Shown here piece by piece: positions 21,066 to 64,000 of a stretch of 64,000 nucleotides of DNA; within the stretch, counting starts at the first letter, position 1, and each line of letters starts with the position of its first letter. Origin of the DNA: Methanobacteriota archaeon (GTDB taxonomy: Archaea; Thermoplasmatota; Poseidoniia; Poseidoniales; Thalassarchaeaceae). A program made the translations under genes and the position numbers. Below the pieces are notes generated by a model that searched no databases, had not been told where the DNA came from, and was given only the letters and a program-made list of their open reading frames with translations. Location of the stretch: positions 4,280 through 68,279 of the forward strand of contig PAOZ01000012.1 in assembly GCA_002708695.1 (NCBI GenBank), given 5' to 3'.

Positions 21066-21077
21066 ACCAACACCTCC

Positions 21078-29764: not shown

Positions 29765-29778
29765 TAGGAGGAGATTAA

Positions 29779-32604
29779 ATGGGGATTATCGAAAGATTAG
29801 GACGCGTTGCTGACACCTATGTTGGCGAACGTGATCAACTCATTGAGGCAGAGCAACAACGTCGAAGAGTGTTCACAGGTCATGCTTTCTGGCCACAAGA
29901 GGCACTTAGAGACACAATTATTGCAATGTCTATTCTAATGGTTCTAAGTTTCTACGCTTGGCTAATACCTCCACCTCTACACAGTGCAGCAGATCCATTT
30001 GCACAAGCAGGTTTCGTTTTCCCTGATTGGTATGTTCTTTTCTCATATGGATATCTTCGTTTAGGAGAATATTTACCTCAATTCGATATCCCTCTCCCTA
30101 CAGCAATTGGTAATTTTTTCGGAACTCCAATTATTTCCTGGAATGCAGGATGGTGGGGGGCAGCAATTACTGGAATTCCAGTAACTATTCTTGCTCTTCC
30201 TCCTTTCATTGGAGGTAGAGAAAAACGAGGAGTTGAAGATCCATGGTTTGCTACAGCAGGGATGGTTTATCTTGCTCATGTTTGGTTTATCTCAGTATAT
30301 TCAATCAATATCTTCCTAGAATTATATGGGAAAAATAGAACTGATTTTTGTCAGATGAATTCCCATGCTGGTTTATCCTGTGGGACGAGAGAACCATGGA
30401 TTGCTGAAGTGTTCAATAGTATACCTTGGTTGTTAACAGGAGTATTCATTTTCGCAGTTCTTTATTTTGGAATTCGTTGGTTCTTAGTCCAAACACAAGG
30501 TGCTAGAATAACCCCTAATGGCAATAGAAATGTGGCATTCGGATCACTCCTAGTAGCAGTATTACTCTGTTCTGTAACTTGGCCTGTATACGATAACGGA
30601 TTCTGGGACATGAAGGGATTCGGAGCAATGCAGGATATCGAAGAATTAGAAACTCTAAGAAGCCAACCTAGTGACACATTGGTAGCAATAGAAGAAAGTC
30701 ATCATCATGAACATATGATGGGTCTGTGCTTATCCTATAGCGATTCATCAAAATCCCCTGCTTGGAATGATGATCACTTTGATTCGGGGGCATGGGCATA
30801 CGAAGATTACTGTGTTATGCCCGCAGAAAAATTCTCTGAATGGGGGATTTTCCAACCCACGCAGAATTATCTCATCGATTTCAACGGAGCAAACAACCAC
30901 GTAGACTCAAACAATGGAAGAAATGGATTATTCAACGAATCAATACACCCAGGATCAATCGATGGTTCAGCAGTTGAACACTCATTTTCTGGTGTAATGG
31001 AGGTTCCAAATCTGGGAGTAGACACACTATTCGTGGACGTAACGTGTAATGTAAGAACTACAATTAGAGGTGCTGGAAACCATTCTATTTCTCTAGATGT
31101 CAAGGATATTAGTGGAACTACTCTCTTATCCATGGATTCCTGTGCTACTGAATCATTGAAATTGAGTAGCGGAACATCTTATTCCCTTGACTATTCAATT
31201 ATTACAACCGGATTGGATATCTCTGGAGATGTCATCACAGACGTTTCAATTACTGCATTCCAGCCATTAGTTCTAGATTCAAACGGAGTAGCAGTAGACC
31301 TTTCTGATGAAACTGAATTATTCATGTTAACTGGATCAACGATTTACAATGCAGAACTACTGTCTGATTTCACTATTGAAAACCCAACATTTGAGAAGAA
31401 TCCTAAGAGTTTGGATGCAAAATTAACCTATTCTTTGGTCATCCCATGTTTGGGCGTAGGAGCACTTGTTTTCTTCCTAATGCGAAGTATGGCAAGAGGA
31501 TATGAATATGAAATGAACAAATGCTATGGATGTGACCTCTGTGATGATGCTTGTCCTGTTAGACTATTTAATGCAGGAGATAAGCTGAATATCATTTACA
31601 ATACATGGAACAATGAGGACGATGGAGTTCCTCTTTATTCCTGTCTAACTTGCACTGCCTGTACAAACGCATGCCCTCAGTTAGTAGATTACGATTCATA
31701 TATTGACATTAGGCGAAATCTAATTGTTGGGGGCCCACCTGCGGCTGAAATCCCTCATTCAATTCTTCAAGCAGTTCTACGAGCAGAAGCAGATGACGAA
31801 GCGAATGACCAATTTGTTCCGGTTGAAGAATACCCTATTGATTCATCAGTAGGATACTATCCAGGTTGTGTCGATTATATCGATCAAGAAATGATTTTCA
31901 GTCATGTAAATGAAGGTACAATGAATCTGGGGCAAACTACTGATGCAGCATTTACTTTGTTTGAAGATGCAGAAATTAATGTAGCGTATTTAGGAAGAGA
32001 TTTCCTAAAATGTTGTGGCCATGACCAAAAATGGCAAGGAATGACTGAAGTTTTTGAAAAATTAAAAGCATATAATCAAAAGAAATTGGGACATAGTGGC
32101 ATTGAAACATTGGTTACTTCTTGTGCAGAATGCTTCAGAACATTTGCAATGGATTACGAACTAGATGATCTTAAGGTAATGCATACTACTGAGTTTTTGA
32201 TAGAATCAGGATATGACTTCGATGCAGCTGTTCCAAAAGGTACGACAGTAACATACCACGACCCATGTAGATTAGGACGACAAATGAATCTCTTTGAAGA
32301 ACCGCGTGAATTAGTAAAGCGAATAGAAGGAGTGGATCTAGTAGAGATGGAACATCATGGTGAAGATGCATTATGTTGTGGTGTTTCAAGTATGATGTCA
32401 TGTAACGAGAATTCTAGAGCCCTTCGAATTGAACGGTTTGAAGAAGTTCGAGCAACAGGTGCAGAGATTATGCTAACAACTTGTCCAAAATGCGTTTCTC
32501 ACTTCGAATGTTTGAAATTTGAAGGGGATCCAAGACATGACTTTGAAATCTTAGATGTTGTGTCCTTCTTAGCAAGGCAAATAGAAGAAAAGAAACAAAT
32601 TTAA
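29779..32604 (+). CDS. Fusion: cytochrome b C-terminal (subunit IV-like) membrane domain + large outward-facing domain + TM + HdrD/GlpC-like module (2x[4Fe-4S], 2xCCG)
   Basis: 'FVFPDWYVLFSYGYLRL' is the PEWY-type Qo loop. There are 5 predicted TM helices, a non-hydrophobic domain of about 265 aa with 'ESHHHEHMM', then a TM helix (LVIPCLGVGALVFFLM). Next come 'CYGCDLCDDACP' and 'CLTCTACTNACP', then two CCG domains ('PGC...KCCGHD...SCAEC' and 'DPCRLGR...LCCGVSS...CPKC'). Confidence 0.8.
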   Translation: MGIIERLGRVADTYVGERDQLIEAEQQRRRVFTGHAFWPQEALRDTIIAMSILMVLSFYAWLIPPPLHSAADPFAQAGFVFPDWYVLFSYGYLRLGEYLPQFDIPLPTAIGNFFGTPIISWNAGWWGAAITGIPVTILALPPFIGGREKRGVEDPWFATAGMVYLAHVWFISVYSINIFLELYGKNRTDFCQMNSHAGLSCGTREPWIAEVFNSIPWLLTGVFIFAVLYFGIRWFLVQTQGARITPNGNRNVAFGSLLVAVLLCSVTWPVYDNGFWDMKGFGAMQDIEELETLRSQPSDTLVAIEESHHHEHMMGLCLSYSDSSKSPAWNDDHFDSGAWAYEDYCVMPAEKFSEWGIFQPTQNYLIDFNGANNHVDSNNGRNGLFNESIHPGSIDGSAVEHSFSGVMEVPNLGVDTLFVDVTCNVRTTIRGAGNHSISLDVKDISGTTLLSMDSCATESLKLSSGTSYSLDYSIITTGLDISGDVITDVSITAFQPLVLDSNGVAVDLSDETELFMLTGSTIYNAELLSDFTIENPTFEKNPKSLDAKLTYSLVIPCLGVGALVFFLMRSMARGYEYEMNKCYGCDLCDDACPVRLFNAGDKLNIIYNTWNNEDDGVPLYSCLTCTACTNACPQLVDYDSYIDIRRNLIVGGPPAAEIPHSILQAVLRAEADDEANDQFVPVEEYPIDSSVGYYPGCVDYIDQEMIFSHVNEGTMNLGQTTDAAFTLFEDAEINVAYLGRDFLKCCGHDQKWQGMTEVFEKLKAYNQKKLGHSGIETLVTSCAECFRTFAMDYELDDLKVMHTTEFLIESGYDFDAAVPKGTTVTYHDPCRLGRQMNLFEEPRELVKRIEGVDLVEMEHHGEDALCCGVSSMMSCNENSRALRIERFEEVRATGAEIMLTTCPKCVSHFECLKFEGDPRHDFEILDVVSFLARQIEEKKQI

Positions 32605-45361: not shown

Positions 45362-48300
45362 CTACTGCTGATTCCAGCCCTGTTGACCCCAACCTTGTTG
45401 TGCGTAGGTATTCGGGTCAACGTGTTGCTGAATTTGCTGGCCTTGAGCTTGTTGATGCGCCCACCATTCTGCCTGCTGTGCAGCCCTCATCTCTTCCTCA
45501 AGACGATAGCGCCTATCTCCAATACGATCAAACAACAAGGCAGTCTGACCTGCATCAATCCTGCCTTTTTCAGATAAATCCTCTACTTCTTTCTCTACTT
45601 CGTGAATTCCTTCATATCCTTCTGCATTATCAATTGAATTTCTAAGTCGTTCGAAATTACTTCTACGACTGTTAGATGATTTCCAAACCAATACAGACAT
45701 AATTGCTCCAATCATAATAATTACGAGAATACCGATTGAAACACCGGTCTGAACCGCAGGATCAATTGTAGAGCCCTGTTGTAGTTGGTCAGGAGTATTG
45801 TCTCCATCTGCATCCAATGGAACATCATTTGCATCAAAAGGATCTGTTCCAACATTGATTTCATCAAAAGTTGTGAACCCATCATTATCATCATCAGGAT
45901 CAACCATATCTGCCCATCCATCACCATCAAAATCTGGACATCCTTTCGTAAATCGAGTTGAATTCCCAGCAACTAGTGGACAATCATCACTTTGTTCAAA
46001 ACCTTGCTGATCAGCCCATCCATCCCCATCAGTATCCGACCATAAAGATGCATCATTTGACCAACCTCCTGGGACAGTAGCATTCCCGTCGATTAAATCT
46101 GCGAAGCCATCTCCATCTGTATCTGGGCATCCAACCAATCCATTTTCAGTAGATTCACCATATTCTTCAGGACAACTATCTGGATCTGTTCCATTTGGAT
46201 TATCACCCCATCCATCGCCATCAGAATCAGCCCATTGACTTGAATCCGAGGGGTAAGAGTCTCCCGAATCTGACCAACCATCACCATCTCGATCAGGACA
46301 AGCAATTCTATCTTCAAAGGATGATCCCCATTCTGTAGGGCAATCATCGACAAGTCCAGATTCAGCAACATCAGGGATACCATCTTCATCAGAATCTGGA
46401 CATCCATTTGATGATTCACCAAAATCTACTGGGCAATCATCTCCATCATTAGAAATCCCATCTCCATCATTATCTGGACATCCTACTTGATCAATGGAAG
46501 AAGTTCCTTGACGAGTAGGGCAATCATCCGAATCAGGGAAACCAGGAGAATCACCAAATCCATCACCATCGGAATCCGAACTTTGATCAGGATTGTCTGG
46601 CATTGCATCAGAAATATCTGACCAGCCATCTCCATCGGAATCGATACAACCTATACGATCTCTAAATGAAGTTCCAGGGGTGTCTGGACAATCGTCAAAT
46701 GGGCCCATTGATTGTTCAAGTTCAACATCTTCGTACCCATCATTATCCCTATCCAAAGGACTGGGGTCAGGCAAATATGCTCCTTCCACCCACATTCCTG
46801 GCCAATGATTCATGCGAGATGAATTCCAAGAAGAAATTCTCCAATTATCTCCCATTCCATCACCATCAGTATCTTTCCATTGTGACGGTTTATTGAAGAA
46901 ATCATCGACTAAATCTGACCAACCATCACTATCTAAATCAGGACAACCAAAGGAATCTTTTGTAGAGGTGCCCCAAACATTTGGACAATCATCAGGAGCT
47001 TCTCCCTCAGTATTATCGCCATATCCATCAGAATCCAAATCTTCCCACTGAGTAGAATTCCCAATGAAAGCATCATTAGAATCCGATTGGCCATCGCCAT
47101 CATCATCCGGACAACCATACACATCCCTTGTGCTTGTCCCATATGCGACAGGACAATAATCGGGAGTAGTGGCACCATCTCGATAGACTCCAATGCCTCC
47201 AGATCTAGAAGCATTCCAAGAAGGATCTCCCCAATTATCACCAAATCCATCTCTATCAAAATCTGACCATTGTGTTGAATCAATTGGGAATCTATCAGTA
47301 CGATCCCCCACGTTATCACCATCAGAATCTATTCCATGTACTACCAAAACAAAATCATTGGAACCACTATGAGATACTGATGAACCGTCAATAGTCAGTT
47401 GAGTTGGGTAATTGAAACCAAAATAGGTTTCATTACCAAGAATTGCAGCACCATATCCTGAATCTCCAGATGTAGTACCATATCCCTTAACCCAGTTCCA
47501 AGAGCCTGTAGAAGAAATTGTAGCAGCGAATACATCATTTGAACCGGTACTGGATAAGCCATAAGGTCCGAAAACTCCTGTGCTGTAGTAATATCCAGTG
47601 ACTGCTATTTCACCAGTATCCCACTCAGTAGAAACTTCATAACAGTAATCTGTACTACTGCCTCCTCCTTTATCGTACCAATTCCAATTTCCAGTTGGTG
47701 AGATTTGAGCCACAAACATATCCCAACTATTCTGATTAGCTTGTAGCCGATTCCCAGAGAATTCAGAATAGCCATAGAACCGGCCACAAACCGTAGCATT
47801 TCCTCCAGCATCTACACTGATTCCCTCAGGATATGTCTCATACGAACTATATCCAAATTCTTCTGCCCAAGAATGAGATCCAGAGGAGGAATATTGAGCA
47901 ATAAATCCCCAATAATCATAACCTCTATTCCCATTATTCAAAGTCATACCCGAGAACTCAACATTATAGGAAAATTCTCCTGTAACATACACTCTCTCTT
48001 GACTGTCAACAGCTACAGAACGCCCTCTCTCATAGTAACTGCCACCAATCCTTTCAACCCAACGCCAATTACCTTGAGAATCAAGACTGGCAAGAAAACC
48101 ATCAGAGTAACAACTTCCACATTGAATAGAACCTGCAGATCCAAAATTCAGAGTTCCGGATGACCAATATCCTGTGATGTATACATTCCCTGACTCTGCA
48201 ATTGCTACTCCATGGGCATAATCACTACTACTTGCTCCAACCGTATTTGACCAAATCCAATTACCAGAAGTATCCAATACTGCGACAAAAATATCGTAAG

Positions 48301-48775
48301 AACCACTAGAGGAATGATAGTCACTACCAAATTGAATTGAACTATAGTAAATACCTGTTATACTGACGTTTCCACCCTTATCAACATCAATATCATAACA
48401 ATAATCAGAACTAGTAGAACCCGCTGTCTTAACCCATAACCAGTCACCAGTTACAGACAATTTTGCAACAAAAATATCAGCAGAATTACTACTTGAAGCA
48501 GGTGTGGAAAGTGTTCCTAAATTCATTGTTTGGTGATAATAACCACAAACATACACATTGCCAAAATCATCAACGTCAATACTTTGGATATTATCTGAAC
48601 CAGAACCTCCTGCATTCTCAAACCAAAGTAATTGAGATGAACTTGCTCTAGGGGAAAAATCAGAATCAATTTCATCCTCAAGCGACACAATACTATCAAA
48701 ATCGTAGGAATTAATCAAAATTGGAGTGAGAAAAAATATCACTAGAACAACACTCAAACGCCGCTTCATGGACAT
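45362..48775 (-). CDS. Large surface protein: signal peptide, beta-propeller-type (SBBP-like) repeats, thrombospondin type-3 Ca-binding repeats, TM anchor, Q/W-rich cytoplasmic tail
   Basis: 1137 aa. It has repeated 'G.SSDY..GV..D..GN.Y.TGY' units and many 'DSDGDGWSD/DTDGDGMGD/DRDGDGWSD' units. A TM helix (ILVIIMIGAIMSVLVW) is followed by a tail ending QQGWGQQGWNQQ. Confidence 0.75.
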   Translation of the reverse strand: MSMKRRLSVVLVIFFLTPILINSYDFDSIVSLEDEIDSDFSPRASSSQLLWFENAGGSGSDNIQSIDVDDFGNVYVCGYYHQTMNLGTLSTPASSSNSADIFVAKLSVTGDWLWVKTAGSTSSDYCYDIDVDKGGNVSITGIYYSSIQFGSDYHSSSGSYDIFVAVLDTSGNWIWSNTVGASSSDYAHGVAIAESGNVYITGYWSSGTLNFGSAGSIQCGSCYSDGFLASLDSQGNWRWVERIGGSYYERGRSVAVDSQERVYVTGEFSYNVEFSGMTLNNGNRGYDYWGFIAQYSSSGSHSWAEEFGYSSYETYPEGISVDAGGNATVCGRFYGYSEFSGNRLQANQNSWDMFVAQISPTGNWNWYDKGGGSSTDYCYEVSTEWDTGEIAVTGYYYSTGVFGPYGLSSTGSNDVFAATISSTGSWNWVKGYGTTSGDSGYGAAILGNETYFGFNYPTQLTIDGSSVSHSGSNDFVLVVHGIDSDGDNVGDRTDRFPIDSTQWSDFDRDGFGDNWGDPSWNASRSGGIGVYRDGATTPDYCPVAYGTSTRDVYGCPDDDGDGQSDSNDAFIGNSTQWEDLDSDGYGDNTEGEAPDDCPNVWGTSTKDSFGCPDLDSDGWSDLVDDFFNKPSQWKDTDGDGMGDNWRISSWNSSRMNHWPGMWVEGAYLPDPSPLDRDNDGYEDVELEQSMGPFDDCPDTPGTSFRDRIGCIDSDGDGWSDISDAMPDNPDQSSDSDGDGFGDSPGFPDSDDCPTRQGTSSIDQVGCPDNDGDGISNDGDDCPVDFGESSNGCPDSDEDGIPDVAESGLVDDCPTEWGSSFEDRIACPDRDGDGWSDSGDSYPSDSSQWADSDGDGWGDNPNGTDPDSCPEEYGESTENGLVGCPDTDGDGFADLIDGNATVPGGWSNDASLWSDTDGDGWADQQGFEQSDDCPLVAGNSTRFTKGCPDFDGDGWADMVDPDDDNDGFTTFDEINVGTDPFDANDVPLDADGDNTPDQLQQGSTIDPAVQTGVSIGILVIIMIGAIMSVLVWKSSNSRRSNFERLRNSIDNAEGYEGIHEVEKEVEDLSEKGRIDAGQTALLFDRIGDRRYRLEEEMRAAQQAEWWAHQQAQGQQIQQHVDPNTYAQQGWGQQGWNQQ

Positions 48776-53029: not shown

Positions 53030-53512
53030 TTGATGACTATGCAGTACTTGGGCAGACCAATGTCGGACATACAATGGCACTCCATTCACGTAGAGGGGAA
53101 AGATGAAAATGAAGTAATAGAGCATAGTCTAGACTCTACTGCTGCAGAACTCCATTCACATTTTATTTCTACAACAAGTTCAGATTCTCCGGCAATAAAT
53201 CAACACGAACAATTCTTGCAATCAACAAGCGAAGTTGTCGTACGTTCTCGAGAAGCAGATGCACAAATTTTTGCCCAGAATCTAATGGGTGCTTCATTAG
53301 ATGCAATCCCCATGAATGAGGGAGTATCCATTGCAACTCAAGGAATTCCATCTCAATTTTTTGACATAAAAGTAGGAATTCATTCTGGAATCTCATACTT
53401 AAGAATCGATAGAGAAGGCTTGGACCCTGTAGTAACTGCACTCCCAATTGGAAGAGAAATTCTCACTGCAAAACATGTCAACGGAAGGTTAGAAATTCGT
53501 TTTTCAGAATAA
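53030..53512 (+). CDS. Hypothetical protein (160 aa)
   Basis: ORF 10 nt downstream of the helicase gene. No motif recognised. Confidence 0.4.
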   Translation: MMTMQYLGRPMSDIQWHSIHVEGKDENEVIEHSLDSTAAELHSHFISTTSSDSPAINQHEQFLQSTSEVVVRSREADAQIFAQNLMGASLDAIPMNEGVSIATQGIPSQFFDIKVGIHSGISYLRIDREGLDPVVTALPIGREILTAKHVNGRLEIRFSE

Positions 53513-56500
53513 TTACCGTGTAGGTATTTCGGCCATATTCTGAATTTCTGAAACAACATTTGACAGTGCTTGTTGGGCAGCTACTTTGTGAGAATCACCC
53601 ATTTCATGAGACGAATAACGTGCCTCTTCAAAGACTTGATCAAGAGCCGCCAAAGCAGATTCACGAATAGGCAAAGCCTGTCTAATGGCCATCTCAAATT
53701 CGCGAACGGTTTCGAAATCACGTCTTAAGAATCCATTCTGCATCAATACCAAACATAGATCTTCATAACAATTGAAAATTGCTTCTCTAATTTCATCGCC
53801 AGCGGCCAAAAGTTCTGCAGTATATGTGAAAATATCTTGAATCTCTTCAATAGTACTTCTCCTTCTTCTCATTTGAATAACTGCGCCCGCAGCTGCAAGT
53901 AAAATTATTACAATAATTGCAATAGAACTTGGACTTACCACCGAATTAGACTCTACTGGTTGAACATATGTCAACTCTACAACGAGGTTTAACAAATCGC
54001 CACGATCATCAGGAGCAATCAATGAAGAAGTTGTATTTAGACGGATTTCGAAATACCCCCAATGAGCCGTATCTGAGAATGTAGGAAGAGGTTCTTGACT
54101 AACAAAGGTGTACTCAAATTCACCCGATTCATCAGTTAATTTACCGAATTGAGTAATTTCTGATGTCTGATTAAACAATAAAGCAGCCATAGACACATTC
54201 GCTAATCGGGCACCATTATCCTTTGCAAATACGGTGACAATTCCACTGAATTCTCTAGAATTAAGTCCAATTTCAACGTCATTAGGAACAAAGGAAGCAG
54301 GCACCATCAAGAAGGCATCAATACCAACTTTCTCTGCCTCGTTAAAGAATCTTGAATCATCTTTAGCCATCTTTAGAGAAAATTCAAGGTCGCCTTGCAT
54401 CGGCTCACTGCCAACCAATGAAATTGTGAATTGACCAGTAGCATTGTCCCAAGAAACAACTGCATCCGATTCAACCGCGCCAGCCCAAATCAACGAAAGA
54501 TCTGACCCTGTAACTGTGTTTCCTGTTCCACCTATTTCCACAATTCTACCGGTAATAACAATTGGATGAGACGAATTAGAACGAATATTATAATCTGAAA
54601 CACCAAGTATCTCAATGATGACATCTGACCAAGTATATGCTGTAACATTATCTTCTGCTCCAATAAATTGTTCATTTCCATCATAGGAAACTCGGATTGT
54701 ATGGAGTCCGCGTTCATAAGAAACTAATACTGGAATCTGAGTAGAAAATGCACCACTAGAATCAGTGGTTACAGTAGTAAGAATGACTCCATCTATCTCT
54801 ATTGTAATAATTGCACCTTCAATAGGAATGCGAGGACTCGTATCCCCATCAACTAAAATTCCTGAAAGGTTCCAAGTCTCTCCTCTTGTTGCTACACCGC
54901 CTTCATCAACAACAAGGTTTGTTATCTCTGCATTGTGTTTAATGACGATACTGGTGTTAGATTGTCCGCCTAAATAGAATCCTTGAGGCTCAGAATATGC
55001 CACAATTTCGTGTACTCCAATAGAGAACGCTGGCCCAACAATCCAATCTAATGTCCAAGACCCATCAACATCGGTTGTCGCTGAACCGATAATACTAGTA
55101 TCTACACGAACGGTAACAATATGGCCGGCGACCCAATTATCAGGAATGTTATCTCTAACTGTTCCGGAAATAGTCACAGTATCACCAACCGCCGCAGTAT
55201 CAATCGCATCAACTGTAACCACTATTGGAGCATATACGTCAAAAGTTGTCGTAGCATTAGATGGGAGATACAACGGAGCTCCAGCAAATCGAACCTCAAC
55301 ATTTTGAGTGCCTAAAGGCATGTCACTAGGGACAGGGTACAATATCGAAACAACTCCTTCAGAATCAGAAGTTACGTTGGTTAAGAATTGACCATTCATC
55401 CATACGCTAAGTGTCATATCAGATATAGGCCGCTCTACAATATCAACAAGAACGCCTGTTAAATCAAGTAGTTCTTCACGAGTAACATCTGCTCCCCCTC
55501 CAAACAAACGAATTTCAGTTGGAACTGAAACTTCGAATCCTAATGTATTGTTTGATTGAAGATAATACTCAGGATTGAGAGAATCACCCTGCCCCATAGG
55601 ATCTACCCACAGGAAACCTCCAAGGAAGAATGCTGTTGCATTGTGAGGACCAGGAGTAGTTTCCAAAGGCAAGGTGTAAGATATTGACCATTGTCCAGTA
55701 ATTGGATCTGACTGAACAATGGTGCCCGCACCAGTATCTACTCCATCAATTGCGAGGTGGATAAGGCCACCCACTACATCACCGGTTTCGTTCAATAAAG
55801 AATTACCATTCTCATCGAGTAATGTACCATTTACAATGATTGTTTGTCCGGCAATCAAATCACCTTCAACCGAATCAACGGACAAAACAGTAGGTGCAAG
55901 GATAACGACTCGAGTAAATGTTGAATCGCCAAGAACACCTGTAGAACCAGGTATTCCATCATGTGTAGCATTTATCGTTAATGGACCTACATCCCAAATA
56001 CCTGGAACACTAAAGTTACCTATTGCAATACCATTTTGATCAGTGAATATTTCAAATGATGTTAATCCATCAATTGAGATATTTATTGATGCATTTTCAA
56101 CGGGAGCACCTGCATTATCAAGAAGTGATAAGGCAACAGTGATATTGTCACCTCTAACTGTTCTTCGATCAGGGTCTAAATCAAGAGGATCGCTGAAGTC
56201 TAGAACAGTATAACCTCGACTATCGAATACCGTTCCATTAGTTGAACCTAGGAAATAATTCACTCCAGGAGTATATGTCACATTTATTGCATGTTGGCCT
56301 CTAGGGAAATCTTGATCTAAACTAATGCTAGCTGTCCAATTGCCATCATATACAGTTCCATTAACAAATGTAAAGGAATCAGTAAATCCATCAATTGTAA
56401 ATCCTAATACTGGAAGAAGATAATTTCCATTACGATCTACAATTCCTGAACCATTCTCTGACGTAAGTGTACCTGAAACATTGAATGTATCTCCTGCAAC

Positions 56501-59500
56501 AGGATTATCCAATATAGGGTCCACAACCAAAATTGTAATTGTTCTAACTGTAACAGTACTGAAAGTACGATTAGTTCCTAACAATGTGAAATTTCCAGTA
56601 TAATCTAATTGAATATCAATCATCCCCAGTGGATGAGTGCTAGGGATAGTGAAATTGAATCGTACTACACCAGTTTCGTTTGTGATTTCATCCGAAAGAA
56701 CAGTTTCATGGAAGGTTCCTGAGATTGTCTGATTAGATAGAAGTCTATCTTGGTCTGACTCTTCAACTAAAGTGGCCCCAAAGTCAATATTATCTCCACG
56801 ATTAACAATGACAGGGATTAATGGAGAAATCTGAGTAAATCCTGTAACACCCTTAACCAATACTTGTTGAGAAATATTACTTGGAAGATAGAATGGATTC
56901 GTATCTTCTAGGACTTGAATCAATAACGTCTTGTTTCCACTTGTAATGCCATCAAGAAGGGGATCTGTAGGAACTGTAATGTTGAAACTACCATTGACGG
57001 CAGTAGTATACGACGAAATTAAAATCTCTGAAGGATCTCCTTCAAAGAATACAGATACATCTATCGGACCACTGAAATTTCTATTTGGGTCATTAAAGTC
57101 TTCAACAGAACCAGCAACAATAAACGTGGAACCAGCAGTAATGAAAGAAGATGGAACAACTGAATCAATAACAACCGAAGTAGGAACTAATACAGTGATA
57201 TTTAGATCAGTAAAATTACCTATCCATCTAGCTGAACCTGTTGACAACGGATCAGTAATATCATCTGGCATTAGAATCCTTACATCATAATATCCAGGGG
57301 CAGTACCTACTGGAATCGTTGGAGTGAAACGAGCAACTCCATCTTGATTGCCACTAGTTGCAGAAGAAAGAGTCTGATTGTTCGGTCCATCCCAATCCCA
57401 AATCATCTGAACTGCAGCGCCAGTAATATTAGATCCATCAGCAATATCAATTACAGATACATTCACTTCTAATATGTCTCCAGCAACTACGGAAGATGGA
57501 GGATCAATAGCAGTCAAAACAGATTCAGATTCTACGCCAATGAGAATACTTGCGCCTTCTTCAACCGAATAATATGCTCCACCTATAGGTGCGTTAGTAT
57601 TGAAATCAGCAGAGACAATTAGATCATAAACTCCAGCCCCTACAAAAGTAGGCATTACAAAGCTAACATTGTATTGGCCAGTGGTCGTATTTACCCATCC
57701 AGACCCTAAATCAACAATTTCAGGAGCAGGGGGTTCACCCATTGGTCCTGAAGGGCCAGTACCTGGTAACTCCATAGTCAAAATAATGGATGAATTGTTA
57801 TTCAAAATCAATGGAGAACCAGTCAAGTTAGAATCTCGTAATTCACCTATAACATAATTTGAATCTCCGATATGAGTCCAACTTTGTCCTAATATTGCTG
57901 AAACAGTTCCTAAACCACTAATTCTAATTGTGGTATTATTTGAAGAAGCATCATACCAAGTTGAACCCGAATAATTAACCCATAAAGGATAATCTCCTGC
58001 AGGGACAATAGGAGAAGTATACTCAAAGGTAAAACTACCATCTTCAGGATCAATAGTAGTATTTACCAAAACACCGTTTATTTCGGTCTGATAAGTACCA
58101 TTGAATGGTTGCTCAGTACCGCCAGTATGGTCATACATACCGATGTTGATTAATTCCATTTGATCTCTTTGAATAGGGTCGAATAAGAAATCAAACGTTA
58201 CGAAACTCTTGAGACCGAAACCTGGGGGCATGAATACTTGATCATCAGCTTCCAATGTTGAAGAATCAAATGTGAATCTAACATCAATAAAACCAGGAGG
58301 CAAAGGCAACATAGATGGATCCATAAACCATGAGATTGAGAAATTACCAGGGTTTCCACTCCATGTTGTGGAATTCAAAACCCAAGATGTAATATCAGTA
58401 TAAGGTGCACCTGAACCATTTACACGCATCTGTAGATAGAGAGTCCCTTCCATTGGCACAGGGTTAAGACCGCGACTAAGTACAGTCCCATTCATGAAAA
58501 TTAAATCATTAATTTCCAGAAGCGAATTATTAGACGATGGCCCTTCAAGAATTATATCCAGATTAGGAGCAGGAGTGATATTCATTGTTAAATTCTGAGA
58601 TAAAGGACGTAGATGATATAGTGGCGACGAACCATTCTGCAAATCTTCCTCATGCCAACCAGGGAATTCAATTGTTGCATTGTTAAGTCCTTGGGATTCG
58701 TTCTCATCTAAGAAGACAACAATTTCAAAGAAACCAGTAGGTCCGATGGAAGTAGTATAACTCTGCGCACCAAATAAAGAAGAAGTAAAATTAAACCAAA
58801 CAAAACTAAAGCCATCAGGATTAGAATCCCCATCTAAATCCCAATCATCTAACAAAGTAACATCTGTTTGAGGGATATTTTCAATCTGCAATCTACCAGA
58901 CAAAGTAGTATTCGAACCTGCTCCGAATACTGGCTCATTTACTGGAAGAGGATCTTCAATAGTTATATTCACATCATCTGTTACATTGACGATATAATTG
59001 TCAAATAGGCCATTAGAACCAACATATCCACTAGGAACTGTTTCAACTACTAATGCCCCAAATCCTGGAGGAATATATTCTGAAGGATTTCCCTTCAAAG
59101 AAAAGGTCCCATTTGCTGCTGTAATGGCAGAACCGATTAGGCGTGATGGTTGTGCTGCAGAGCCAGGAACTGAACCTGCCGCCGCAAGTGGGACTAAATA
59201 CAAATCAAGAACTATTCCCTCAACTGCTGTTTGATTGGATGAATATACTAGGGTACCATTGAGATATGTCTGTCCAGAATTACCATCTCTATCAATGAAA
59301 AATGGACCCCATTCTGCATTCAATATTTCAACATCTTCATCGGGGGGGCATGCATTGAAAGGAACCCATCCCATCTCTGCATTGCCTAAAGCAGAATTTG
59401 TTTGCATATGGACTTCTACCCACGTACCATAATTCAGACCAAGGACCTCATAACCTGTACCATGCCAATTACCGTCAACATATCCTGAAACCTTACGCGC

Positions 59501-62500
59501 GGGCAAACCTGCAAGTCTAGCCATAGTGGTTAGAACTGTAGTCCAATCATCACAAGTTCCTTCTTTAGAATCAATAAGAATAAATTGAACGAAATCAGGC
59601 CCACCTCCTTGTGGATATCCGCTACCATCATAATTTAATCGAGGAGTAAATGTTGCATTTCCATTCTCAATAAAATCTGCTAATGCTTCCATCTTTTCCC
59701 ATGCAGACAAGGCACCCGAAGATGAAATCACAGATTGAGTAATATTGTTTACCTCAGATTCAGGTAACGAATTATCTGTGAAATATGAAGGTAAATCAAG
59801 GGCATAACTGCTACCAGAATAGGCAGTACTATTGGATCTTACAGAGTCTGAAAACCAAATTTCTGGGGCATCAGCTATCAAGAAATCTAAGTTTATGTCA
59901 GTTAGAGGAACGTCATGAGTATAATTTGTATGATTCAAACCAGCCGTTGGATCTGCCCATCCATTATACTGAGTTGTACTCCAATGATGTGGAACGTTAG
60001 AACCAGGTTGCAACATAAATGGGAAAGTATATTCCCAACTAGTGGTATTGTTATGGAAATTCGTAGATGCAATCCAATTATTATCTGCGAATCCAGGTGA
60101 CATTGAATTTAGAACTACTAGAGAAGAATTGACCCCATAATCTACACCAGTATAACTATCATAAGTATAAGTCCTCCAATAATGTACTAGAGCAGGGTCA
60201 ACATTTAGAGAGGTATTGTTTGCCCAGAAAATAACCTGATTTTCAATAATATCATCAGTTGGATCAAATGGATCTTGGCCCGAACCAGCACAATTAGTTG
60301 GCCAAAAGGCAGGAGGACATTCTTGATAATCTGTCATTCCACCTCCATCTGTATCGGGGTCTAACCAATTTGTGCCAGTATTATTTTCAATCGCATCAGG
60401 AATCCCATCTCCATCAGTATCTGCTGGATTTAAGTCATCAGAAGGATTATTCTGAGGATTGGTACCATCAAGGTATTCTTGCCCATCCCAGACACCTCCA
60501 ACATCGGTATCAACAGCTTCATAATCAGTGATGAAAGTATCAGAAGAACCATTTCCGCCCATACCTGGAACATAGAATAATGGACAACCAGTATTATTCT
60601 CAAAGTAATCATTCAATGAGTCCCCGTCAGTGTCTCGATTATTATCACAAGGCTCTAATGGATCTGTTCCATTCAATATCTCATCTAAGTCATTCACTGT
60701 ATCATTATCTGAATCAACATCAAAAGGATCAGATTGAAAACCCCAAAAACCAAAATTTTCTTCCCAATCAGAAATTCCATCTTCATCATGATCATAATAA
60801 TCATCATCACACCAAGGATCATTACTACTTGGTTGTATATTTGCATCCCAACACCAAGAACCATTCTTGTGTATCACGGTAGAAGTTGTAGCTGGAGGAC
60901 TTACGCTTACCCCAATTAACCTATGCGGGGAGGATAAAACATCTGCTTGTTGGAAAGTAAATGGCACCAGAGAACCATTGGATAAATTGTAATATCCAAT
61001 TCTACCGGGAGAAGTTGGGCGCCAATCGAAGAAATCAGGGCCAAAACCAGACGCGTTTGCAATGAAGAGAACTTGATTGCTTGCATCATATGAAGAAAAT
61101 GTTGTAACGAAATCTACTGTAGAAAGACAGGGGTCAGTATTGAAACCAGTAGTTCGTTCTAATCCATCAATCACTCCTCCAAAATCTGTATCGGCAACAT
61201 TCCAACCTGTACAAGTTAGATTTTCTTCCCAATTTTCAATGCCATCATTGTCGAAATCACCTGAATCTTCGGCACGTGTCGGGTCAGTCTCATTACCTCC
61301 ATCAATAATTCCATTACCATTGATATCCTCTTCGCCATCATCAAATGGGTCATCGTCAGTATTGTTATCTCTAGGATCAGAAGCTTGAGCTGGTGACCCG
61401 TACTGTCCATTTACTTCATTACCATCCGAAATTCCATCTCCATCTGTATCTGAATCTGTAGGATCTGTGAGTAAGGTCAATGCTTCGTAACTATCATTCA
61501 AGCCATCTCCATCTGTATCTGAACGTTGAGGGTTTGTCGATGTAACACCATCAACTTCTGCTGTTAATGTTGCACATCCATTAGGGCCAATTCCTAATAC
61601 AGGATTACAGGGGGATTCCGTCTCGGTTCTCTGCTGATTAGGTGCACCAGGCATGAAATAAGGCGTACCAGAATTCTGAGTTGTCCAAGATGGATTTACG
61701 TATTCTTTCAGATTTACTAATCCATCTCCATCTGGGTCTCCTCCAGGGCCATCGGAACCTGTTCGTACGGTTGGATCTAAACCATTGGAGACTTCCCAAC
61801 CATCATTCATTCCATCATTATCAGTATCATAACCATCAGGATCTTCATCAATATCTCCATCACCATCATCGTCATCAGAGGAGCAATCTGCATCCCCATC
61901 ATTATCAGGATCAGCAGAATCTACTAGTCCATCGCGATCGTTATCCATTCCATCGGTACAAATATTCCCCATTGGATCTTCATCTGCACCATCTGAACCG
62001 GTTCCTTGATTTGCCTGCATTGCAGATTCTTCATCCCAATTTCGAGTAGGGACTGTACCATTCCACCAAACTCCATTATCAAGAACATTAGGAGTATTTG
62101 GGTTATCCCAATTAGAAGGCATTCCATATTGATACTCGTCCTTGTTGGACAAACTATCTCCATCAGGATCACCAAGTGAACCATTGACAGTAAGACTGGA
62201 AGCATCTAAGGGATTCAAACCATGAAACCATTCCCAACCATCAGGAAGTTCGTCATTGTCACTATCCCAATCTTGTGGCTGTGTATTCAATAAGAATTCC
62301 AAACCATATGTTAGGCCATCACCATCAGCATCCGAGGACGCATATGCTTCCCATGCTGCGAATTCAAGTGCAGCCAAACTAGCGAAAACCATCAGCATTG
62401 TTAACAGAACTGCCCTACACCTGTTTCGTACTCCAGTGTGGCGAAAGTGGGGGAAAGGCTCCGTCAACATACGTTCAACCATGCCGTAGGGCATCTTGTA

Positions 62501-62560
62501 GGGTCTTAAGGGAAATGGAGCGGTGTTCGTACGCAAAGGTAGTTGTAAGATATCAGTCAA
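53513..62560 (-). CDS. Giant (3015 aa) TgpA-like surface protein: N-terminal TM, Ca-binding TSP3-type repeats, transglutaminase-like core, long Ig-like repeat array, C-terminal TM and cytoplasmic DUF4129-like domain
   Basis: 'DADGDGLTYGLE', 'DPDGDGLVNLKEY', 'DTDGDGISDGNE' and similar units. Transglutaminase Cys box 'KEGTCDDWTTVLTTMARLAGLPARKVSGY' with a downstream 'TWVEVHM'. Many N-x-S/T sequons. TM helix 'IAIIVIILLAAAGAVI', then '...FETVREFEMAIRQALP...LDQVFEEARYSSHEM'. Confidence 0.85.
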   Translation of the reverse strand: MTDILQLPLRTNTAPFPLRPYKMPYGMVERMLTEPFPHFRHTGVRNRCRAVLLTMLMVFASLAALEFAAWEAYASSDADGDGLTYGLEFLLNTQPQDWDSDNDELPDGWEWFHGLNPLDASSLTVNGSLGDPDGDSLSNKDEYQYGMPSNWDNPNTPNVLDNGVWWNGTVPTRNWDEESAMQANQGTGSDGADEDPMGNICTDGMDNDRDGLVDSADPDNDGDADCSSDDDDGDGDIDEDPDGYDTDNDGMNDGWEVSNGLDPTVRTGSDGPGGDPDGDGLVNLKEYVNPSWTTQNSGTPYFMPGAPNQQRTETESPCNPVLGIGPNGCATLTAEVDGVTSTNPQRSDTDGDGLNDSYEALTLLTDPTDSDTDGDGISDGNEVNGQYGSPAQASDPRDNNTDDDPFDDGEEDINGNGIIDGGNETDPTRAEDSGDFDNDGIENWEENLTCTGWNVADTDFGGVIDGLERTTGFNTDPCLSTVDFVTTFSSYDASNQVLFIANASGFGPDFFDWRPTSPGRIGYYNLSNGSLVPFTFQQADVLSSPHRLIGVSVSPPATTSTVIHKNGSWCWDANIQPSSNDPWCDDDYYDHDEDGISDWEENFGFWGFQSDPFDVDSDNDTVNDLDEILNGTDPLEPCDNNRDTDGDSLNDYFENNTGCPLFYVPGMGGNGSSDTFITDYEAVDTDVGGVWDGQEYLDGTNPQNNPSDDLNPADTDGDGIPDAIENNTGTNWLDPDTDGGGMTDYQECPPAFWPTNCAGSGQDPFDPTDDIIENQVIFWANNTSLNVDPALVHYWRTYTYDSYTGVDYGVNSSLVVLNSMSPGFADNNWIASTNFHNNTTSWEYTFPFMLQPGSNVPHHWSTTQYNGWADPTAGLNHTNYTHDVPLTDINLDFLIADAPEIWFSDSVRSNSTAYSGSSYALDLPSYFTDNSLPESEVNNITQSVISSSGALSAWEKMEALADFIENGNATFTPRLNYDGSGYPQGGGPDFVQFILIDSKEGTCDDWTTVLTTMARLAGLPARKVSGYVDGNWHGTGYEVLGLNYGTWVEVHMQTNSALGNAEMGWVPFNACPPDEDVEILNAEWGPFFIDRDGNSGQTYLNGTLVYSSNQTAVEGIVLDLYLVPLAAAGSVPGSAAQPSRLIGSAITAANGTFSLKGNPSEYIPPGFGALVVETVPSGYVGSNGLFDNYIVNVTDDVNITIEDPLPVNEPVFGAGSNTTLSGRLQIENIPQTDVTLLDDWDLDGDSNPDGFSFVWFNFTSSLFGAQSYTTSIGPTGFFEIVVFLDENESQGLNNATIEFPGWHEEDLQNGSSPLYHLRPLSQNLTMNITPAPNLDIILEGPSSNNSLLEINDLIFMNGTVLSRGLNPVPMEGTLYLQMRVNGSGAPYTDITSWVLNSTTWSGNPGNFSISWFMDPSMLPLPPGFIDVRFTFDSSTLEADDQVFMPPGFGLKSFVTFDFLFDPIQRDQMELINIGMYDHTGGTEQPFNGTYQTEINGVLVNTTIDPEDGSFTFEYTSPIVPAGDYPLWVNYSGSTWYDASSNNTTIRISGLGTVSAILGQSWTHIGDSNYVIGELRDSNLTGSPLILNNNSSIILTMELPGTGPSGPMGEPPAPEIVDLGSGWVNTTTGQYNVSFVMPTFVGAGVYDLIVSADFNTNAPIGGAYYSVEEGASILIGVESESVLTAIDPPSSVVAGDILEVNVSVIDIADGSNITGAAVQMIWDWDGPNNQTLSSATSGNQDGVARFTPTIPVGTAPGYYDVRILMPDDITDPLSTGSARWIGNFTDLNITVLVPTSVVIDSVVPSSFITAGSTFIVAGSVEDFNDPNRNFSGPIDVSVFFEGDPSEILISSYTTAVNGSFNITVPTDPLLDGITSGNKTLLIQVLEDTNPFYLPSNISQQVLVKGVTGFTQISPLIPVIVNRGDNIDFGATLVEESDQDRLLSNQTISGTFHETVLSDEITNETGVVRFNFTIPSTHPLGMIDIQLDYTGNFTLLGTNRTFSTVTVRTITILVVDPILDNPVAGDTFNVSGTLTSENGSGIVDRNGNYLLPVLGFTIDGFTDSFTFVNGTVYDGNWTASISLDQDFPRGQHAINVTYTPGVNYFLGSTNGTVFDSRGYTVLDFSDPLDLDPDRRTVRGDNITVALSLLDNAGAPVENASINISIDGLTSFEIFTDQNGIAIGNFSVPGIWDVGPLTINATHDGIPGSTGVLGDSTFTRVVILAPTVLSVDSVEGDLIAGQTIIVNGTLLDENGNSLLNETGDVVGGLIHLAIDGVDTGAGTIVQSDPITGQWSISYTLPLETTPGPHNATAFFLGGFLWVDPMGQGDSLNPEYYLQSNNTLGFEVSVPTEIRLFGGGADVTREELLDLTGVLVDIVERPISDMTLSVWMNGQFLTNVTSDSEGVVSILYPVPSDMPLGTQNVEVRFAGAPLYLPSNATTTFDVYAPIVVTVDAIDTAAVGDTVTISGTVRDNIPDNWVAGHIVTVRVDTSIIGSATTDVDGSWTLDWIVGPAFSIGVHEIVAYSEPQGFYLGGQSNTSIVIKHNAEITNLVVDEGGVATRGETWNLSGILVDGDTSPRIPIEGAIITIEIDGVILTTVTTDSSGAFSTQIPVLVSYERGLHTIRVSYDGNEQFIGAEDNVTAYTWSDVIIEILGVSDYNIRSNSSHPIVITGRIVEIGGTGNTVTGSDLSLIWAGAVESDAVVSWDNATGQFTISLVGSEPMQGDLEFSLKMAKDDSRFFNEAEKVGIDAFLMVPASFVPNDVEIGLNSREFSGIVTVFAKDNGARLANVSMAALLFNQTSEITQFGKLTDESGEFEYTFVSQEPLPTFSDTAHWGYFEIRLNTTSSLIAPDDRGDLLNLVVELTYVQPVESNSVVSPSSIAIIVIILLAAAGAVIQMRRRRSTIEEIQDIFTYTAELLAAGDEIREAIFNCYEDLCLVLMQNGFLRRDFETVREFEMAIRQALPIRESALAALDQVFEEARYSSHEMGDSHKVAAQQALSNVVSEIQNMAEIPTR

Positions 62561-64000
62561 TTAATTCGATATCTAAATCAAACTCATCTTCTTCTGCTTC
62601 AACAATTGTAGGAGGTAAATCATCAAGATCTTCTAGTTCAAATTCATCTTCCTCATCAAATTCATCCTCAAACTCATCAACCCATCGCCTTCGATTTCTT
62701 CGATTTTGAACACCAAGTACTACAATCAATAAGGTTACAACAGCTGAAATCAAAGTGACAGGACTTGGATTCAAAACTTCATTTGTAATCCTCAGTACTA
62801 TATCTTGAATCTCGACATTCATGACCAAATTTAGTTCGGCCCTTGCATTTTCATATTCTTCTCCGCCCTCATCGGCAAATGTCTTAGGAGAAGCAGAAAC
62901 AGAAAATGACACTGATTCACCCTGTCTAGCATCTTGAGGGGCATTAATCACTACAACAAAAGAGATGTCAGAATAAGGAGGAACCATGACTAAATCTCCT
63001 CCTCCGCCACCTATTTCTGCATCCCAACCATCACAAGAAGTTGCAGAATCGGAACATTCGATATCAATTTCAACGATTAACTCTTGGTTTCCTTTATTCT
63101 TCACACGCATCTGTAATGAGCGCTCCTCATTAGGTTGAATCCCAGGATTATTTGAAACTTGAACAACTTCTAGAGAAATAGAACCAGGTCCAATTTCAAC
63201 GATAAAGGGCATATCAAAATAACGAGCATCAGAATCAGTTGAATCTTCCATTATCCTCAGATACAATGTATGTGACCCCATCTCCACCTCATCTGGAGGG
63301 TCTATTGAAAGATGAACCTCCTCACTTTGTTGTGGTGCTAATTGAAGCATTGGAACACTATCCCCAGAATTATCTGTTATTCTGAAAACCCACTGAGAAT
63401 ACATCTCATCAACATCTAGATTTCTTTGGAGATCTGCTGGGTCCATTAGTCTCCAAGGAGTACTTGTAGAACCGTCTTGCAAACTATTTGTGACAATTAA
63501 TCGCATTGACATACCATTCTGAGTGCACGCTGTTTGATTTACAGTTCCTAAAGGTGCACCGTCGCAATCGAAAATAGGTGTTGCCTGAATCCCAAATGTC
63601 CGTTGAATTGTAAACTGGACCGTGGACTTCTTTGTCGAATTACCCTCACTAGTTACTTCAAGATGAATTAATCCCAAATCAGAATCAGAACGATCATCAG
63701 AAGGTTTTACTCTAATCTGAAGAACCTGAGTAGAATGTCTTCCCAGTAACGCAGTATGGAAAGTCCCATCTCCTTCATCTTCTAAAATACGGATACCAGT
63801 ATCATTATCGAACACTTGAATGATTGATTTTGAACGTTCTAATACGTCCACCCTAAATTCATCTGTATCAAATCCATTATTCCAGATTTCCATAATGAAT
63901 GTAGTAAATACTCCATCTTCTACAAATCTAGGAATTGTAGAATCAAATGAATCTGGACGAGAACTATTGTCATATTGTACAGTCTGATTATTATCCCACA
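62553..64000 (-). CDS. Surface protein with CARDB/NEW3-like beta domains, C-terminal TM and highly acidic tail (5' end beyond window)
   Basis: The frame stays open upstream of the listed Met to the window end. It contains beta-sandwich-like repeats and a TM helix 'LISAVVTLLIVVLGV', then RRNRRRW and 'DEFEDEFDEEDEFELEDLDDL...EEDEFDLDIELID'. There is an 8-nt overlap with the giant gene. Confidence 0.65.
   Translation of the reverse strand, partial: WDNNQTVQYDNSSRPDSFDSTIPRFVEDGVFTTFIMEIWNNGFDTDEFRVDVLERSKSIIQVFDNDTGIRILEDEGDGTFHTALLGRHSTQVLQIRVKPSDDRSDSDLGLIHLEVTSEGNSTKKSTVQFTIQRTFGIQATPIFDCDGAPLGTVNQTACTQNGMSMRLIVTNSLQDGSTSTPWRLMDPADLQRNLDVDEMYSQWVFRITDNSGDSVPMLQLAPQQSEEVHLSIDPPDEVEMGSHTLYLRIMEDSTDSDARYFDMPFIVEIGPGSISLEVVQVSNNPGIQPNEERSLQMRVKNKGNQELIVEIDIECSDSATSCDGWDAEIGGGGGDLVMVPPYSDISFVVVINAPQDARQGESVSFSVSASPKTFADEGGEEYENARAELNLVMNVEIQDIVLRITNEVLNPSPVTLISAVVTLLIVVLGVQNRRNRRRWVDEFEDEFDEEDEFELEDLDDLPPTIVEAEEDEFDLDIELID

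Follow-up and report, generated by a model that had tools for sequence, protein, structure and literature searches.

The window analysed here is a stretch of 64,000 nucleotides (nt) of contig PAOZ01000012.1 (assembly GCA_002708695.1, Thalassarchaeaceae), an archaeal core-genome region with genes for RNA polymerase subunits, FtsZ and glutamate dehydrogenase. On its reverse strand, an uninterrupted open reading frame (ORF) at 53513..62560, of 3,015 codons when counted from a TTG at 62560, encodes a predicted giant surface protein. From the N-terminus onwards, this protein comprises a probable signal peptide, a region of thrombospondin type-3 (TSP3) calcium-binding repeats, a module related to the ecto-domain of the transglutaminase TgpA, a long array of immunoglobulin (Ig)-like modules, a transmembrane (TM) helix and a cytoplasmic tail with a DUF4129 domain. 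Because the catalytic histidine has been lost in every member of the family examined, the transglutaminase-like module is more likely to be a binding or scaffold module than an enzyme.

The coding sequence of the giant probably spans 53513..62482 of the reverse strand, which corresponds to 2,989 amino acids (aa) plus the stop codon. The likely start is the ATG at 62482, while the TTG at 62560 would be a mechanical ORF start, because the orthologues P0001 and P0002 (each of 2,989 aa and 91% identical to the window protein) begin at the same MVERML. Consequently, the reading frame that an earlier, sequence-only reading of this DNA had described is present, but the length of 3,015 aa that it had given is shortened by the starts of the orthologues. 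Residue numbers are counted here from the methionine encoded at 62482; positions in TTG numbering are higher by 26.

The giant has more than 1,000 homologues in the protein database searched. Among the 120 that were listed, all but one have between 2,935 and 3,017 aa and align to the window protein with 42–91% identity over 98–100% of its length; the sole exception in length is a fosmid-derived entry of 2,660 aa. The multiple alignment of these homologues with the window protein (121 sequences) contains few gaps. Additionally, a pattern scan that considered one genome per species confirmed at least 287 loci, and the best 80 of these, all of which belong to Poseidoniales / Marine Group II (MGII) / Thalassarchaeaceae, were used as a set that is independent of the 121 aligned proteins. 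A stop-to-stop ORF of more than 2,800 aa is present in 59 of these 80 loci, the remaining loci being mostly on short contigs or close to the end of one.

Since its domains form repetitive modules, the protein could be suspected of owing its long reading frame to an assembly artefact, that is, a collapse, expansion or chimera across repeats, and the sequence-only reading had named collapse or expansion as an alternative. This explanation can be practically dismissed. Tandem Repeats Finder detected no tandem repeats in the gene, and the only family of direct repeats, a 55-nt TSP3 motif, shows 60–73% identity between copies and is therefore too diverged to be mis-assembled. The constant length of the orthologues over their wide range of identities, with few gaps in the alignment, also rules out such an artefact, as do the intact reading frames observed in metagenome-assembled genomes (MAGs) of many studies, in two single-cell genomes (3,003 and 3,006 codons) and on a contig of 1.06 Mb whose name suggests polishing. 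In one MAG whose transglutaminase module is 91% identical (L008:7781-11440), the frame breaks off within the contig after 1,220 codons, and none of the other seven loci with inspected ORF coordinates is interrupted. A frameshift, an error of assembly or decay into a pseudogene could account for the break.

The TgpA-type ecto-module (aa 746-1075, 59258..60247, reverse strand) is formed by an N-terminal beta-sandwich followed by a transglutaminase-like core. The core matches the Pfam family Transglut_core (PF01841) with an E-value of 6.1e-11 and 43.0 bits (cutoff, 23) at aa 955-1070 in TTG numbering, and this domain is recorded in 120 of the 120 listed homologues. The best solved relative by sequence is the periplasmic domain of TgpA (PDB 6g49; E 8e-5 with the single sequence and 1.6e-9 with the family profile), and the homology extends over the entire ecto-domain of TgpA and takes in the upstream beta-sandwich with its 'YWR..T.D.Y.G' motif. 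An AlphaFold2 model of aa 740-1109, for which 30 diverse orthologues were used as input, reached a mean predicted local distance difference test (pLDDT) of 88.1 and a predicted template modelling score of 0.86. The top Foldseek matches of this model were again the TgpA structures 6g49 and 6g4h (E 9e-13, template modelling score 0.61 over ~320 columns), followed by 3isr, a putative cysteine protease of Cytophaga, by transglutaminase 2 and other animal transglutaminases, and by factor XIII. Homology and a transglutaminase/papain-like fold thus place the giant in the transglutaminase-like superfamily, although not as an active enzyme. Both the transglutaminase core and the kinship with TgpA had been proposed from the letters of the sequence, and each is borne out; even the cysteine codon of the GTCDDWTT box lies exactly where it had been placed.

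The catalytic residues do not follow the Cys-His-Asp triad of this superfamily. Cys977, at the canonical position of the nucleophile (GTCDDW, 59552..59554), is invariant in both sets, namely in 121 of 121 proteins and at 80 of 80 loci. The canonical position of the catalytic histidine is occupied in the window protein by Gly1019 (59426..59428), as the TgpA sequence 'HAWVE' aligns with 'GTWVE'. In the 121 aligned proteins, threonine (67), serine (18), alanine (16) and aspartate (8) are found at this position, together with a few other residues that include the glycine of the window, and histidine in none; at the 80 loci the residues are T (44), S (12), A (9), G (7), N (4), D (3) and K (1), again without a single histidine, and the consensus of the family profile is 'ttWaE'. 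The canonical Asp/Glu position corresponds by alignment to Asn1043 (59354..59356) in the window protein, and is E in 63, D in 36, N in 10 and Q in 9 of the 121 proteins. Two residues further, Cys1045 (59348..59350) is an invariant cysteine specific to the family, at a position where canonical relatives have threonine, so that their 'DPT' reads 'xAC/xPC' in the His-less family. A substitute histidine elsewhere in the module was considered and rejected: His1025 is found in only 89 and His1007 in only 16 of the 121 sequences, and no invariant or near-invariant histidine was found anywhere in the 370-aa module in this alignment. The enzymatic cross-linking or remodelling activity that had been suggested for this protein is consequently not sustained, as the triad is not conserved, an outcome that the sequence-only reading had itself named as a refutation.

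The loss of the histidine is specific to the family of the giant among the relatives that could be aligned. In an exhaustive search with the module against 1.84 billion representative proteins, the top 148 matches were aligned, and the Cys-His pair is kept in ~110 of the ~130 informative distant relatives. Where the third position is aligned, it is almost always Asp or Glu (C-H-E in 51 and C-H-D in 24 sequences; in a further 32 with C-H, this position was unaligned). A distant relative of 908 aa, P0195, shows the opposite pattern, in that it has Asp as a replacement for the nucleophile Cys and retains the His. Its acid position is occupied by Glu, and no further sequence outside the family of the giant was seen with a cysteine two residues after this position ('EGDDNLFA ... 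SHSWIEV ... GWMPVEVCP').

The distribution of cysteines suggests, although it does not prove, a disulfide between Cys977 and Cys1045. The ectodomain of the window protein contains 14 cysteines, 12 of which are found in the TSP3 region as six closely spaced consecutive pairs, and Cys977 and Cys1045 are the sole cysteines between aa 732 and the membrane. The number of ectodomain cysteines is even in 108 of 120 orthologues. Cys977 and Cys1045 may be considered a disulfide pair because this pattern fits one in which all extracellular cysteines are bonded. The threonine of animal transglutaminase 2 that is equivalent to Cys1045 is one that we take to line the active-site tunnel; if so, both positions would be close in space.

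At the N-terminus, aa 1-48 (62339..62482) probably form a Sec signal peptide for removal by signal peptidase I, with a basic n-region, an h-region of ~20 aa (the hydrophobic segment covers aa 24-44) and the motif A46-x-A48 before S49. The motif is conserved: among the 121 proteins, 101 have A and 17 have V at position -3 before S49, and 110 have A and 10 have G at position -1. It is directly followed by the invariant first repeat, D-x-D-G-D-G-L. A cleaved signal peptide is proposed because of the basic n-region and of this conserved A-x-A before the first TSP3 repeat. If the segment is cleaved, the mature giant would be a type-I membrane protein held by its C-terminal helix only, with the calcium-repeat region as a membrane-distal head and the Ig array as a stalk. 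If it is not cleaved, the giant would be anchored at both ends, as had been pictured before.

The TSP3 region (aa 49-745, 60248..62338) is acidic and carries 12 cysteines and a variable, beta-rich insert at around aa 450-550. Its tandem acidic repeats follow the D-x-D-x-D-G-x-x-D pattern of TSP3 repeat proteins, and 13 strict D-x-D-x-D-G motifs are present in aa 44-745 as compared with 0.8 expected from shuffled sequences (maximum 5). The Pfam model TSP3_bac scores 23.4 bits, slightly under its cutoff of 25. Partial matches to the repeat region were obtained with the NCBIfam models for CglD and MtsD; in the case of CglD, the match covers aa 582-747 in TTG numbering with an E-value of 9e-17 and 60 bits, the family cutoff being 400. 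The region may thus be expected to bind Ca2+. With respect to the sequence-only reading of this half of the protein, the hydrophobic segment and the calcium repeats are present, but the former has the look of a cleavable signal peptide and not of a TM helix, the ~700 aa of repeats would be a distal head instead of a stalk if the signal peptide is cleaved, and a cytoplasmic location of both termini is unlikely.

Between the transglutaminase-like module and the membrane lies an array of Ig-like beta-modules (aa 1076-2853, 53924..59257), the probable stalk. Pfam matches to Big_3_5, CarboxypepD_reg and MG2 are found in it, and a hidden Markov model built from one module detected at least 13 related modules with a spacing of ~100-115 aa; the array that had been described is therefore real, but its length is ~1,780 aa and not about 1,900. 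Weak matches to MG2, MG4 and bMG3 could be read as an indication of an alpha-2-macroglobulin-like thioester protein. This reading was rejected, since the array has no cysteine and cannot carry a thioester. The array contains 67 of the 92 N-x-S/T sequons of the ectodomain, where 35 +/- 5 would be expected (a ~2.5-fold excess; the family mean is 86 against 34.5). The richness in sequons that had been remarked on earlier is thus confirmed, and the giant is presumably N-glycosylated. As for its composition, D and E together represent 14.4% and K only 0.7% of the ectodomain.

The C-terminal TM helix (aa 2854-2871, 53870..53923), recognized by its hydrophobicity, is followed by RRRR and by a cytoplasmic helical tail (aa 2872-2989, 53516..53869) that matches DUF4129 with 25.0 bits (cutoff, 24.8). 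Both features had been correctly identified in the sequence-only reading, and DUF4129 is recorded in many orthologues. The motifs FLRRDFETVREFE.AIR.A and LD..FE.ARYS are invariant in the tail. In the AlphaFold2 model (pLDDT 86.6), the TM segment is one continuous helix that runs on into a four-helix cytoplasmic bundle. No significant match to the tail was found in a profile search of the PDB (best E 0.27) or with Foldseek, which returned generic helical bundles and HEPN-like proteins, the best being the HEPN-domain protein 2hsb (E 0.05), together with 4nqf and HepT toxins. A HEPN identity was not adopted, as the tail has R2955-x3-H2959 instead of the R-x4-6-H of HEPN proteins, this histidine is present in only 109 of the 121 sequences and the match is not significant; the likeness is probably a generic resemblance between four-helix bundles. 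The titles and abstracts of the papers that were found to name DUF4129 suggest no functional study of this domain.

Conservation is unevenly distributed along the protein, and the strongest constraint is observed on the TSP3 head and on the DUF4129 tail. The mean frequency of the most common residue is 0.74-0.86 in aa 50-450 of the head, 0.69-0.77 in aa 550-750 and 0.81 in aa 2900-2950 of the tail. The transglutaminase core is only moderately conserved (0.64-0.68), and values of 0.42-0.65 are found in the Ig array.

The neighbourhood of the giant was examined in the window, at four further loci with 32-91% identity in the transglutaminase module (L001-L004, that is, three contigs with +/-10 kb of flanking sequence and one distant orthologue with +/-8 kb) and at the 80 genome loci with +/-10 kb of flank. 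Directly upstream and on the same strand lies a partner gene, of which the window contains the part that encodes the C-terminal 481 aa (62553..64000, reverse strand; its 5′ end is outside the window) and which ends 70 nt before the ATG of the giant. The gene is in this position and orientation in 51 of the 54 loci with enough sequence. Full-length partners have ~960-980 aa (L001:6985-9930, L002:6910-9810, L003:7016-9892 and L004:4967-7912) and comprise a signal peptide, an ectodomain with weak Ig, CARDB and NPCBM_assoc matches, and, after a C-terminal TM helix, a cytoplasmic tail of extreme acidity that ends in motifs such as DIELID or LEDLEDL. The partner diverges faster than the giant (25-44% as against 42-50% identity). 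It is a matter of speculation that its acidic tail contacts the arginine-rich DUF4129 tail of the giant.

On the other side of the giant, a small ORF and the gene for an XPD-like helicase converge on it in 54 of 54 loci. Situated downstream of the helicase gene, the small ORF (53030-53512, forward strand) encodes 160 aa in the window, as compared with 139-158 aa at orthologous loci, and adjoins the stop codon of the giant (53513-53515); its only family match is a weak one to orotidine 5′-monophosphate decarboxylase (E 0.008). The stop codons of both genes are 0-2 nt apart in all five loci inspected, and any terminator of either gene would therefore be located inside the coding sequence of the other.

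TgpA-type proteins are commonly associated with MoxR and DUF58 genes, as had been stated in the sequence-only reading together with the observation that the window contains no such genes. This observation holds: MoxR and DUF58 were not found in the window by Pfam searches of 26 of its ~57 ORFs of at least 120 aa or by phmmer searches of all six-frame ORFs with a genuine MoxR and DUF58 pair as queries. Beyond the window, they were found neither in the flanks of L001-L004 nor at any of the 80 genome loci. The association itself is correct for an active-type relative, P0129. Genes for a MoxR-type AAA ATPase and for a DUF58 protein (18995-19987 and 19984-21315) lie three genes downstream of the gene for P0129 (L005:8001-16406, on a contig of 2.35 Mb), a locus that served as a positive control for their detection.

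Two other features of the region may be mentioned. A second large protein of the window, of 1,137 aa (45362-48775, reverse strand), has beta-propeller repeats of the SBBP type (E 8.6e-18) and is a further possible surface protein. Such a protein is also encoded a few genes from the giant at L001:23711-27121 and L003:23089-26511, and is absent at that position in L002. Further away, at 28892-32604 on the forward strand, a cytochrome b-like gene (290 aa) is directly followed by a gene for a 941-aa protein with 4Fe-4S dicluster domains and two CCG (HdrD-like) domains, an unusual-looking respiratory pair that is unrelated to the giant.

Considering these observations, we propose that the giant is a lineage-wide envelope or adhesion scaffold of Poseidoniales, in which the transglutaminase fold is now a non-catalytic binding or structural module, and we give this interpretation a probability of roughly 0.6. 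According to this proposal, the protein would be a type-I membrane glycoprotein of ~2,990 aa present throughout Poseidoniales, with its Sec signal peptide cut after A-x-A. The mature N-terminus would be an acidic, disulfide-stapled TSP3 head that binds the Ca2+ of seawater far from the membrane, followed by the TgpA-type transglutaminase-fold module, by a stalk of ~16-17 cysteine-free, heavily N-glycosylated Ig-like modules, by one TM helix and by the conserved helical DUF4129 tail in the cytoplasm. In the module, the former nucleophile, Cys977, would be locked in a disulfide with Cys1045, and the pseudo-enzyme would work as a binding or scaffolding domain, in a similar way to erythrocyte protein 4.2 or Rad4/XPC. 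The giant and its co-oriented type-I membrane partner of ~970 aa would act together in adhesion or in an envelope scaffold, and the giant might be held or sensed from the cytoplasm by way of its DUF4129 tail.

Some observations weigh against this interpretation. Cys977 is still invariant, which is not required of a purely structural domain and is explained here by a presumed disulfide, and an acidic residue has been kept at the Asp position in ~80% of the family. The h-region of ~20 aa could also serve as an uncleaved signal anchor, cleavage being deduced from the motif. Additionally, the role in adhesion or as a scaffold is proposed by analogy with other proteins that contain such domains, and the surface location and the glycosylation are predicted from sequence. 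Rinke et al. took the widespread 'thrombospondin genes' of Poseidoniales as evidence of adhesion (PMC6461757). These may be the gene of the giant.

The invariance of Cys977 and Cys1045 in all 121 proteins would also be expected if the module were still an enzyme, although a non-canonical one, in which Cys977 works without a histidine, for instance, as a thiol-disulfide exchange pair with Cys1045 or as part of a Cys/Glu dyad. An exchange pair could covalently capture or release a ligand or partner that bears a cysteine, and the scaffold would present this site far from the cell. The site contains other invariant residues (D224, W267, W282, E284, W300 and R326 in A1 numbering), which together with the frequent acidic residue at the Asp position would suit such an enzyme; however, canonical relatives likewise conserve E284 and W282, in a structural role, and the family offers no conserved histidine or other obvious general base as a replacement. 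Furthermore, we know of no enzyme with a papain or transglutaminase fold that works without its histidine, and both head and tail are under stronger constraint than the core. Consequently, we regard this explanation as unlikely, though worth keeping in mind. A somewhat bolder proposal is that the giant and its ~970-aa partner form the principal envelope or canopy of MGII, in which the Cys977/Cys1045 module is a new disulfide-based latch that captures particles, prey polymers or neighbouring cells and the DUF4129 tail couples it to a cytoplasmic partner. Capture by such a repurposed pseudo-transglutaminase could be reversible and covalent (by thiol-disulfide exchange) or simply of high affinity. 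This idea is speculative, and we would not expect it to be correct in full.

Less probable still is the original suggestion of an active TgpA-like transglutaminase or cysteine protease that remodels the surface, with both termini in the cytoplasm and DUF4129 signalling inward. The order of domains (an ectodomain with the transglutaminase module, a TM helix and DUF4129) certainly resembles that of TgpA, whose periplasmic domain has transglutaminase activity in vitro (PMC3507681), and the tail is very strongly conserved. Nevertheless, no member has the canonical histidine, the window protein carries Asn in place of the Asp and lacks the polytopic membrane domain with which TgpA begins, and its N-terminal segment is probably cleaved, to judge by the conserved A-x-A. 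The scarcity of lysine, the usual acyl acceptor, in the ectodomain also argues against this activity, but only as far as self-cross-linking is concerned. Finally, the MoxR/DUF58 context is lacking, whereas P0129, a giant with a canonical triad, is encoded near both genes. On balance, it is quite improbable that the window protein is an active enzyme of this type.

Poseidoniales, which are uncultured, are the most abundant planktonic archaea of surface oceans, and, to our knowledge, nothing is known about their cell envelope. The giant is a concrete, order-wide and syntenic candidate for the main structure of their surface or of their adhesion, and it could be targeted in metaproteomics, with antibodies, by labelling similar to fluorescence in situ hybridization and by cryo-electron tomography. 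Its orthologues are named 'transglutaminase domain-containing protein' or 'hypothetical protein' in the databases. The first of these labels overstates enzymatic function, and neither cross-linking nor protease activity should be deduced from it in metabolic reconstructions. We found no open-access paper that discusses the orthologues or links MGII/Poseidoniales to transglutaminase; in the MGII literature, a paper on transcription and another on the pangenome contain no mention of thrombospondin or of a surface protein. In addition, the comparison of a His-less TgpA module with two cysteines with the canonical-triad giants encoded near MoxR and DUF58 may illustrate how an envelope enzyme can become a pseudo-enzyme, and the extreme conservation of the tail offers a handle on the uncharacterised DUF4129.

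Among known systems, TgpA of Pseudomonas aeruginosa (PA2873; 6g49/6g4h) is the closest in organization, as it shares with the giant an ecto-module of ~330 aa and, after it, a TM helix that leads to DUF4129 on the cytoplasmic side. The triad is conserved in TgpA, which has six N-terminal TM helices and a periplasmic domain that shows transglutaminase activity in vitro (PMC3507681). By contrast, the giant has one hydrophobic segment, with no Pfam match to a membrane domain, in place of a polytopic N-terminal domain; its ecto-module is preceded by ~700 aa of TSP3 repeats and followed by ~1,780 aa of Ig modules before the TM helix is reached; and it combines the loss of the catalytic His with a relaxed Asp position and an extra invariant Cys two residues after it. 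Its host is an archaeon, and MoxR and DUF58 genes are not found nearby within the loci examined, a neighbourhood that is commonly associated with TgpA-type proteins but does not strictly define them. Thus, of the features of this type, the giant has the ecto-module, the TM helix and DUF4129, and it lacks the multi-helix N-terminal domain and the MoxR/DUF58 neighbourhood.

The size of the giant, which had been considered unusual, is so in comparison with TgpA, but a transglutaminase core inside an adhesin-sized scaffold is not unique to its family. In fact, many giants of 1,500-3,300 aa whose transglutaminase cores have a canonical triad are found among the distant relatives. P0129 (2,801 aa), P0152 (3,142 aa) and P0144 (3,030 aa), for instance, share with the window protein an embedded core and MG/Ig-like modules. 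Most of these relatives differ from it in keeping Cys-His-Asp/Glu ('QAHQWAEV', '..EPT'), and a few, such as P0152, have a serine as nucleophile. P0129 further differs in having HEAT repeats, two transglutaminase cores and nearby MoxR (AAA_3) and DUF58 genes.

For the remaining regions, the comparisons are more partial. No known S-layer family was matched by the giant in profile searches; the features that would suit an S-layer or major envelope glycoprotein are indirect ones, namely the probable signal peptide, the C-terminal anchor, the 2.5-fold excess of sequons and the occurrence across Poseidoniales. CglD and MtsD of Myxococcus (TSP3_bac) resemble it in that they are surface proteins with arrays of acidic, calcium-binding D-x-D-x-D-G-x-x-D repeats. 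This resemblance is limited to the repeat region, as the giant has no VWA domain and both the organism and the rest of the architecture are different. With respect to the fate of the transglutaminase fold, inactive domains with a scaffold role are known in erythrocyte protein 4.2 (EPB42), Rad4 and FBXO21 (PMC10318531). These proteins (EPB42, Rad4/XPC and FBXO21) are eukaryotic and intracellular, and share neither orthology nor a common architecture with the giant. The route to inactivity also differs, since EPB42 lost the Cys, whereas the giant kept the Cys and lost the His. What they would have in common, if our proposal is correct, is a transglutaminase fold that has been kept after the loss of catalytic residues and put to use in binding or scaffolding.

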